Positions 62,617 to 63,615 of a stretch of DNA of 64,000 nucleotides are shown piece by piece. Origin of the DNA: Obrimoposthia wandeli (Eukaryota); contig CDROCS010000007.1 of assembly GCA_977020255.1 (NCBI GenBank), positions 62,001 to 126,000 of the forward strand, read 5' to 3'. The notes below the pieces were generated by a model. It ran no database searches, had not been told where the DNA came from, and saw only the letters and a program-made list of their open reading frames with translations. Every line of letters starts with the position of its first letter. Positions within the stretch are counted from its first letter, which is position 1. Made by a program: the position numbers and the translations under genes.

Positions 62617-63615
62617 ATGACTACTAAATTTATTGCACATTATGTTTCAGAAAACGGAGAACTCACCATTAGACGACGGCGTTTTGATAAGATTTCAAGA
62701 ATAAATGAAAATATGATATATGAAGAAAGAAGATTAGATACATTACAAGCAAAGTTTACTGGTTTAGCCCATAAGAAAGCTTTAGCAAAAGCAGGATTTT
62801 ACAAGCACGATGATTCGAAAGATAATGTAAAGTGTATTTACTGTCAGGGAGGAATATCGGGATGGGAGTACTATCTGAAACCAATGAAGCGGCATCAGCT
62901 ATTTTTCCCAATATGCCCGTTTGTTTTGAAAATGAATGTTTCAAACGTACCAATAATTGATTCCAGCACCGCACAAATTGATTTTGATTTAACTCCAATG
63001 GATAAAGTAGTTATTTTGCGCAATAATTATTCTAATGATATTGAAATACCTACATTATCGATTTTCGATCATGTATATATTTGAAATGATTCTTATCGAT
63101 GTTGTTTCTGTTAGAAAGCAGTACCCCGACTTGAGTTTATTGATACTATGCCCGAAAGAATCTTTCATACTCGAGATTGTAAAGCATCTAGTATGGGAAT
63201 CAAGAACTGTATTGTGGAATATCATATTAGTAATGATGAAATTGATGCTCAGATGGAAACTCGTCAAATAGTTTTGCTGAAACGTAATTACAGTCATGAT
63301 AGAATCAAAGCCGTTTTAGTTAATAGGTTTAAAACATTCGGTAACAAATATGATTCTATATATGAGTTTATAACGGATTTAATGTCTTTAGAAATAAAAT
63401 CTGAACCAAAACATCGGATAAATTATCTCGAGTACCTCTTACCAAATCCCGAATGTGTTGTTTGCATGAGTGATGCGATTTCCGTGGCATTTTTACCATG
63501 CGGTCACTTAAACACGTGTATTAAATGTTCAGATCGTTTTATTACATGTCCATATTGCAAGACAATTATCATTAGACGAGTAAGAAATATTAGATTTCAA
63601 AGCATAGGCAATTAA
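62617..63615 (+). CDS. iap: Inhibitor of apoptosis (BIR-UBA-RING); exons 62617-63072 and 63115-63615, 318 aa
   Basis: BIR: RLDTL...LAKAGFY...VKCIYC...W...H...CPFV; UBA-like RNYSHDRIKAVL...YDSIYEFITDL; RING: CVVC...PCGHLNTC..C...CPYC; a 42-nt GT-AG intron joins the two ORFs in frame. Confidence 0.92.

Follow-up and report, generated by a model that had tools for sequence, protein, structure and literature searches.

The IAP gene and its relatives

Near the right-hand end of the window, by which we mean the whole 64,000-nt stretch of DNA that was analysed, an IAP gene runs on the forward strand from 62617 to 63615. Read-through, Pfam matches and homologues define it as one 332-codon frame that is broken by two premature stops. 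The encoded protein has an intact BIR (aa 39-103, + strand, 62731-62925; PF00653, E 8.9e-13) with the pattern Cys-x2-Cys-x16-His-x6-Cys and a C-terminal C3HC4 RING (aa 278-319, + strand, 63448-63573; PF13920, E 1.2e-11). A UBA-like helical domain (aa ~206-261, + strand, 63232-63399) was recognized with a home-built HMM and a fold model: the HMM, made from 55 segments, gives 20.3 bits at aa 225-259, four helices are predicted with pLDDT ~86-95, and the Pfam UBA model PF21290 finds no match in the IAP protein. The domain is without the MGF loop, the usual UBA motif. A sequence-only reading of this DNA had described a complete BIR-UBA-RING IAP. The BIR and RING and, by the home-built HMM, a UBA-like stretch are indeed there; the completeness is not, since two stops break the copy.

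A fourth feature lies between the BIR and the UBA-like domain. Cys and His columns and a BIR HMM indicate a degenerate second BIR-like zinc knuckle (Cys-x2-Cys ... His-x3-Cys, aa ~150-188, + strand, 63064-63180). When 429 windows of other proteins are turned into a BIR profile, it places a further weak BIR at aa 156-174 and does so at the equivalent place in two homologues, P0004 and P0120; the segment scores 6.1 bits, whereas the 500 shuffles (443 reported) reached 3.6 at most. The score is weak and the canonical spacing is missing, but the columns of Cys163, Cys165, His184 and Cys188 are invariant in all three family proteins. Judged by profile and alignment, the Cys-x2-Cys pair is the knuckle of a second, degenerate BIR.

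Distant relatives came from a full phmmer search that returned 4454 proteins at E up to 0.001, the best 150 of which were examined. P0004 aligns to the read-through protein with 32% identity over aa 2-327 (E 3e-51), and P0120 nearly over its full length with 26% (E 2e-29). A genomic locus from a metagenome, L001, is 30% identical, and a second locus, L002, covers the first BIR only; the IAPs of these two loci are themselves broken or cut off. A word-based protein search found no relatives among 332 candidates with the read-through protein and two among 4040 with alignment A1, one of them already in the set, and the viral contigs contained no relative for the BIR part or for A1. In a BIR tree of 145 rows, the first BIRs of P0001, P0004, P0120, L001 and L002 fall together on a single branch (SH-aLRT 92); this is a quick tree based on few columns, for which the background was taken from the first 70 other proteins (their last two BIRs). 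The family thus placed appears small and divergent, and its gene is one continuous frame of BIR, degenerate BIR, UBA-like domain and RING.

Structural comparison connects the protein to both cellular and viral IAPs. A fold computed from three sequences was uninformative (pLDDT 36.5). A second fold reached pLDDT 76.2, but most rows of its alignment had been picked for placing the Cys pair, so that the knuckle in it (pLDDT 65-76) is biased, as are the invariant Cys columns of that picked alignment, which are not counted as proof. The BIR superimposes on a BIRC6 chain (VIA-align Z 13.5, rmsd 2.1, 85 aligned), with rows covering aa 25-114 only. The top Foldseek match in the PDB is cIAP1 (3t6p, E 2.6e-7). 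Fold matches in BFVD are IAPs of baculoviruses, nudiviruses and nimaviruses, of which Iap-3 of Adoxophyes orana granulovirus is the best (E 2.4e-10). Cellular IAPs of the cIAP1/XIAP/DIAP type have BIR, UBA-like domain and RING in the same order; the protein described here differs in its ~20-25% identity over the length, a single intact BIR, the lack of a CARD and its location on a repeat instead of a host locus. With the viral proteins it has in common the compact BIR(s)-plus-RING architecture on a DNA virus or virus-like element, but identity is 14-21% in the top matches, the likeness is one of fold, and the UBA-like domain is kept here.

The carrier element

The IAP gene lies close to the left end of a repeated element that starts at 60502 and continues past the right-hand limit of the window. 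A candidate terminal inverted repeat (+ strand, 60502-60940, the latter coordinate being approximate) was delimited by a jump in depth, a shared end motif and repeats. The sequence at 60502, AGTAGGTAGATGTGT, reads AGTAGG and so begins with an AGTAG-type motif, which is followed by internal direct and inverted repeats. In contig run X1, depth is 2.4-21.7 over 54807-58014 and 16.6 over 59619-60019, rises to 69,158 in the bin 60421-60821 and reaches 164,006-333,135 over 60822-64000, four orders of magnitude above the flanks; this is summed contig depth over contigs that are 85-100% alike, and not a copy number. The IAP sits in a very large, dispersed repeat family. A conserved or single-copy host locus, the alternative that the sequence-only reading had named, is ruled out by this roughly 10^4-fold excess over the flanks.

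The end motif can be followed to other elements in the window. The end at 60502 agrees in 14 of its first 15 nt with ends at 14506 and 32105. A 195-bp array follows the latter ends; over 631 nt it shows 87% likeness to the right arm of a separate, decayed element bearing a pPolB fragment between inverted arms (52542-54626, no strand assigned; PF03175, E 0.0029, a match below the cut-off). The right end of that element also has the end motif in common with 60502. The shared array therefore links the motif to an element of this genome that bears a polymerase, although the pPolB fragment itself, at 52.5-53.9 kb, belongs to another element than the carrier of the IAP. The viral contigs held no relative for either the 18-nt end motif or the pPolB fragment. 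As further observations on this second family, its inverted arms (533 nt, 93% alike, 195-bp unit) span 52063-54626 at an X1 depth of 27,000-67,000, and the ends at 14506 and 32105 are solo ends.

Between the left end and the IAP gene, the ORF list gives two genes on the reverse strand. A basic 120-aa ORF with three G-x-G repeats (61353-61715) resembles, as we assume, Polinton core proteins that are cut at the protease sites of the element; it had no match in Pfam, PHROGs or NCBIfam and none that was usable in the Atlas. The second, of 129 aa (61754-62143), has weak matches only and belongs to no assigned family, and a word-based protein search accepted none of its one candidate as a homologue. 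The terminal region further contains, at 60614-60902, six copies of the palindrome AGGTCATGACCT (three of them perfect, 12 nt) where 0.10 would be expected in the window. The palindrome corresponds to a head-to-head pair of nuclear-receptor half-sites, and a CRE-like core is presumably part of one variant. Another AGTAGG-type end, alike to one at 981, occurs at ~60002 (60002-60506, X1 depth 146); behind it lies a 97-aa ORF, the stop of which overlaps with the motif at 60502, and the IAP element may have inserted into what was the end of an older element.

In view of the above, the carrier is probably a Polinton-type element, or at least has Polinton-type ends. The earlier description of the gene as Polinton-borne holds as far as a high-copy mobile element with a Polinton-like end is concerned; pPolB, integrase, ATPase, protease and capsid genes were all absent from 60502-64000, the first 3.5 kb of the element. 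This absence would also be consistent with an intronless, coding IAP on a different kind of carrier, either a gene-poor, non-autonomous derivative bearing Polinton ends or an element of another kind, for example a giant Gypsy, which we regard as possible but the less likely option. The extreme depth is unusual for intact Mavericks, for which a median of 8 copies in vertebrates is given in the accessible text of PMC8097293, and planarian Burro elements, which are giant Gypsy elements, carry a BIR domain according to the text available for PMC6431247. The Burro BIR is described there as part of the polyprotein of an LTR retroelement, whereas the IAP described here forms a gene by itself, preceded by a Polinton-like end. 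Around the relatives, the neighbours of the IAP at L001 and L002 included no Polinton genes and gave no family match naming a carrier. A carrier of the LTR type is opposed by the AGTAG-type end in common with the pPolB-bearing element, by ORFs on both strands, by the TBP-like gene described below, and by the lack of any tblastx match of L001 or L002 to the Gypsy element in the window; none of these observations tells against a non-autonomous Polinton. More than one type of element may carry the family. At L001 (1-1845) and L002 (178-423) the IAP is preceded by ORFs with a likely membrane segment and a weak fibronectin-type match.

Published Polinton-type elements offer two comparisons. Bcl2 and IAP homologues have been observed in adintoviruses, which are animal Polintons/Mavericks (Starrett et al. 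2021, PMC8502044, in the portion available). These resemble the present case in having an anti-apoptotic IAP as accessory gene of a Polinton-type element; here the second BIR is only a knuckle, the copy is broken and core genes would lie beyond the window. The parallel with IAP capture by baculoviruses, drawn in the sequence-only reading, is thus a fair one but not new, because IAPs on animal Polintons were already published for the adintoviruses. The second comparison is with vertebrate Mavericks (Barreat and Katzourakis 2021, PMC8097293). The accessible part of that paper describes intact elements as intronless, with accessory regions flanking the core and with (AGT)2 or (AG)3 ends, and finds erosion in 96% of loci, through stop codons, frameshifts and insertions that gene finders annotate as introns. 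The window copy shares with such degraded Mavericks the erosion, the intron-like breaks and the AGT/AG-type end. It differs in that its end reads AGTAGG, in a depth implying far more copies than the median of 8, and in an apparently non-vertebrate host.

The 42-nt segment and the two premature stops

The central claim made for this locus was a spliceosomal intron at 63073-63114 joining a BIR and a RING ORF in frame. Its geometry is confirmed by the coordinates: GT at 63073-74 and AG at 63113-14 enclose 42 nt on the + strand, and the ORFs 62617-63084 and 63148-63615 share one frame, so that the segment corresponds to 14 whole codons (153-166), which include the Cys pair. A stop codon had also been noted in the segment; there are in fact two, in frame at codons 156 and 166 of 333, and the AG acceptor is part of the second. 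The ends and the host-like length are those of an intron, but the other lines of evidence indicate coding sequence.

The composition and spacing of the segment add little weight to an intron. Of the 282 positions in the gene at which any stop followed by an amber stop 10 codons further on could be placed, 131 offer an enclosing GT..AG bracket that is in frame and 36-60 nt long, and the GT..AG found here is accordingly no better than chance. The A+T content is 74%, near the 67% of the IAP gene and unlike the 92% of a 38-nt intron candidate at 63829-63866 in the neighbouring gene.

Other copies of the element were compared over 52000-64000 using four public contig runs that cover the stretch, all from one sample. 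At the first premature stop (63082-63084, + strand, codon 156) 98.1-99.5% of the depth reads otherwise in all four runs (99.5, 99.2, 98.8 and 98.1%; 210,706 of 211,725, 83,625 of 84,257, 116,587 of 118,016 and 106,434 of 108,468). At the second (63112-63114, + strand, codon 166, also the claimed acceptor) the share is 99.3-100% in four of four runs (99.8, 100.0, 99.3 and 99.8%; 124,013 of 124,215, 47,697 of 47,715, 66,853 of 67,334 and 53,525 of 53,646). The other letter turns both stop codons into sense codons, and at the second it retains a usable splice acceptor. The GT of the claimed intron shows no variation among the 40 of 331 difference rows that were listed. The stops are nearly private to the window copy. 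On the DNA of the copies alone, an intron is no longer needed for an open frame, 98.1-100% of the depth being stop-free at either codon, though one may still be present.

The coding status is settled, beyond what the copy DNA alone shows, by homologues that align through the segment. P0004, P0120 and L001 all align across it and retain the Cys pair together with the downstream His; P0004 and P0120 also have the His-x3-Cys further downstream, and L001 passes through the 14 codons in a frame that is open there. More widely, 155 proteins gave a BLAST match and 65 alignments span aa 150-190, 31 of which place a Cys pair on that of the query. Splicing out the 42 nt would delete a conserved knuckle. 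With the 14 codons conserved as coding in homologues and the stops nearly private to one copy, the intron claimed for the IAP gene is not supported: on alignment evidence the 14 codons are coding sequence, and the 42 nt are very probably not a real intron. We therefore suggest that the gene is, very probably, a broken copy of an intronless IAP on a Polinton/Maverick-type element, in which two stops create the look-alike of an intron.

The sequence of events could be as follows. An intronless, viral-style IAP family, with an intact BIR, a degenerate second BIR knuckle, a UBA-like domain and a RING, would be an accessory gene close to the left end of a Polinton/Maverick-type element of very high copy number. 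In the decaying window copy, two nonsense changes would then have arisen at a distance of 10 codons; an AG would have come with the amber stop, and a GT that happens to lie upstream would complete the apparent intron. Stop-creating changes make up 5.2% of all single-base changes in the IAP gene. This corresponds to 2.2-3.1 expected stops at an upper-bound divergence of 4-5%, for which all 331 rows are taken as private, and to about 0.4 if only the 7 listed rows inside the gene are counted. The true expectation lies between these values; two stops are unremarkable and their closeness is somewhat lucky. The contigs depart from the window sequence again at 63995, in the TBP-like gene, probably due to an indel in the window copy, and this fits an aged copy. 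The window copy lacks an open frame and is a pseudogene, which most likely yields a 155-aa BIR fragment at most, or nothing.

Three other explanations of the stops can be considered. The first is that both are assembly errors and that the window copy is intact, as nearly all of the run depth reads otherwise at the two positions. We consider this very unlikely: many other positions, among the 40 of 331 rows listed, show near-total differences of this kind, as fits an aged copy, and 0.5% and 0.2% of X1 depth is without the other letter at the first and second stop. The second is a family-wide spliceosomal intron at 63073-63114 in which the letters that make the stops are neutral changes. In its favour are the GT..AG ends, a pyrimidine-rich 3' part, a length of 42 nt near the 41 nt of a host intron, the location of both stops inside the segment with acceptors in both variants of the 3' end, and a gap over at least 10 of the 14 codons in 8 of the 65 spanning alignments. 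Such an intron would, however, need a length divisible by three and a stop-free state in most copies, which has a chance level of 0.13 (38% of shuffled 42-mers of the same composition are stop-free, times one third for the length), and a Cys pair in register with three relatives, Cys-x2-Cys arising in 1.9% of such shuffled 42-mers (0.019 by chance); with the near-genic A+T content and the frequency of available brackets added, it is very unlikely. The third, a segment that is coding in the family but acts as a cryptic in-frame intron in the window copy or at low level, giving a shorter IAP without the second knuckle, is mechanically feasible given splice-like ends, a length divisible by three and a host that handles introns of this size, yet very unlikely in a copy that looks decayed elsewhere too (the break at 63995) and whose 42-nt segment revealed, by eye, no branch motif resembling that of host introns. 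A joint 63072-63115 was not among the best 15 of 407 contig joints, which derive apparently from DNA contigs and are uninformative on splicing.

A broken, intronless IAP gene thus remains the preferred explanation, and what is left after the flagged intron falls away is a new, divergent IAP cargo on what is probably an animal Polinton-type element. The case also carries a warning: in high-copy elements, two nearby nonsense changes, one of them to an amber stop, can mimic a short in-frame intron, and family depth together with homologues reveals such mimicry. The searched literature, as far as its text was available, held no description of an intron in a Polinton IAP; introners have been described in dinoflagellate Polinton-like elements (PMC11957031, accessible text).

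The TBP-like gene, a possible end module and the rest of the window

Downstream of the IAP, motif scores suggest a TBP-like gene on the forward strand (63684-64000) that is cut by the end of the window. Among all 2309 16-mers of the element, scored against 31 archaeal TBPs, the one at 63783 best matches the motif preceding the conserved glycine (27.6, next 9.5). For the motif after that glycine, the best of 86 downstream 9-mers starts at 63869, where a 38-nt segment ends, although its score is 4.3 compared to an element-wide best of 15.4. In a TBP profile the second part reaches 7.0 bits, with none of 1000 shuffles as high, and the first part 0.0, with 121 of 1000 as high. The TBP-like pieces found no match in PDB, Pfam or NCBIfam, and the matches in PHROGs and plasmids are chance; the viral contigs gave no relative for the first part and the Atlas no usable match for the ORF.

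The 38-nt segment (63829-63866, + strand) has GT..AG ends, is 92% A+T, has a length not divisible by three and lies at a frame change inside the TBP motif. These properties are suggestive of a better intron candidate than 63073-63114. A joint 63828-63867 was not among the best 15 of 407 contig joints (apparently of DNA contigs), and the lack of a high-depth joint dropping the 38 nt, among those listed, hints that the family possesses them. That genes of the element follow host splicing rules, as proposed in the sequence-only reading for the IAP, may hold for the TBP-like gene instead. If spliced, the candidate would add to the few host-type introns in elements that are described as intronless in the available portion of PMC8097293.

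The likely role of intact copies can be considered from their domains. An intact family IAP would bind caspases or IAP antagonists via its intact BIR and ubiquitylate them via the RING, so that the host cell would survive during replication of the element. In the reduced second BIR, the ability to bind peptides is probably gone. By analogy with baculoviral and cellular IAPs, we find it reasonably likely that intact copies encode such an E3-ligase IAP. A more tentative proposal, to which we would give somewhat less than even credence, is that of a hugely amplified animal Polinton lineage with its own end module, composed of an intronless IAP from a separate family of mobile elements with a knuckle-type second BIR, a TBP-like gene split by a true host-type 38-nt intron, and terminal repeats studded with a palindrome resembling a nuclear-receptor response element. 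If this were true, the element would need the splicing machinery of the host to make a transcription factor of its own, and would at the same time protect the cell against death. What keeps the locus of interest is the small IAP family, whose second BIR is reduced, together with the adjoining TBP-like gene.

Host splicing itself is illustrated elsewhere in the window. The 41-nt intron that had been noted in a host gene is present at 8612-8652 on the forward strand as a GT-AG segment with a frame change, and looks real. The gene is RINGv/MARCH-like, the MARCH label being our assumption from its motif, and a second copy lies near 26192. The region at ~4900-40000 is duplicated in tandem at intervals of ~17.6 kb, with copies that are 97-100% alike; the MARCH-like gene lies within it, as does a portion of a Gypsy element. 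Either the duplication is recent or it is an assembly artefact. One or more large Gypsy-type retroelements with a very long gag-pro region occupy 15256-47000, with downstream ORFs for a dual-specificity phosphatase (PF00782) and three RING fingers, and are reminiscent of giant Burro-type elements. Two further matches were set aside as probably due to chance: one of P0004 at 41413-41613 (E 1.4e-4) and one to Pox_VLTF3 (E 0.034). On the reverse strand, a 194-aa ORF at 58683-59267, moderately repeated (X1 depth 655-2000) and without a family match, looks like a transposase fragment. A single-exon 455-aa ORF at 55997-57364, also on the reverse strand, has single-copy depth, an 18-bp repeat and no Pfam match, and is probably a host gene.
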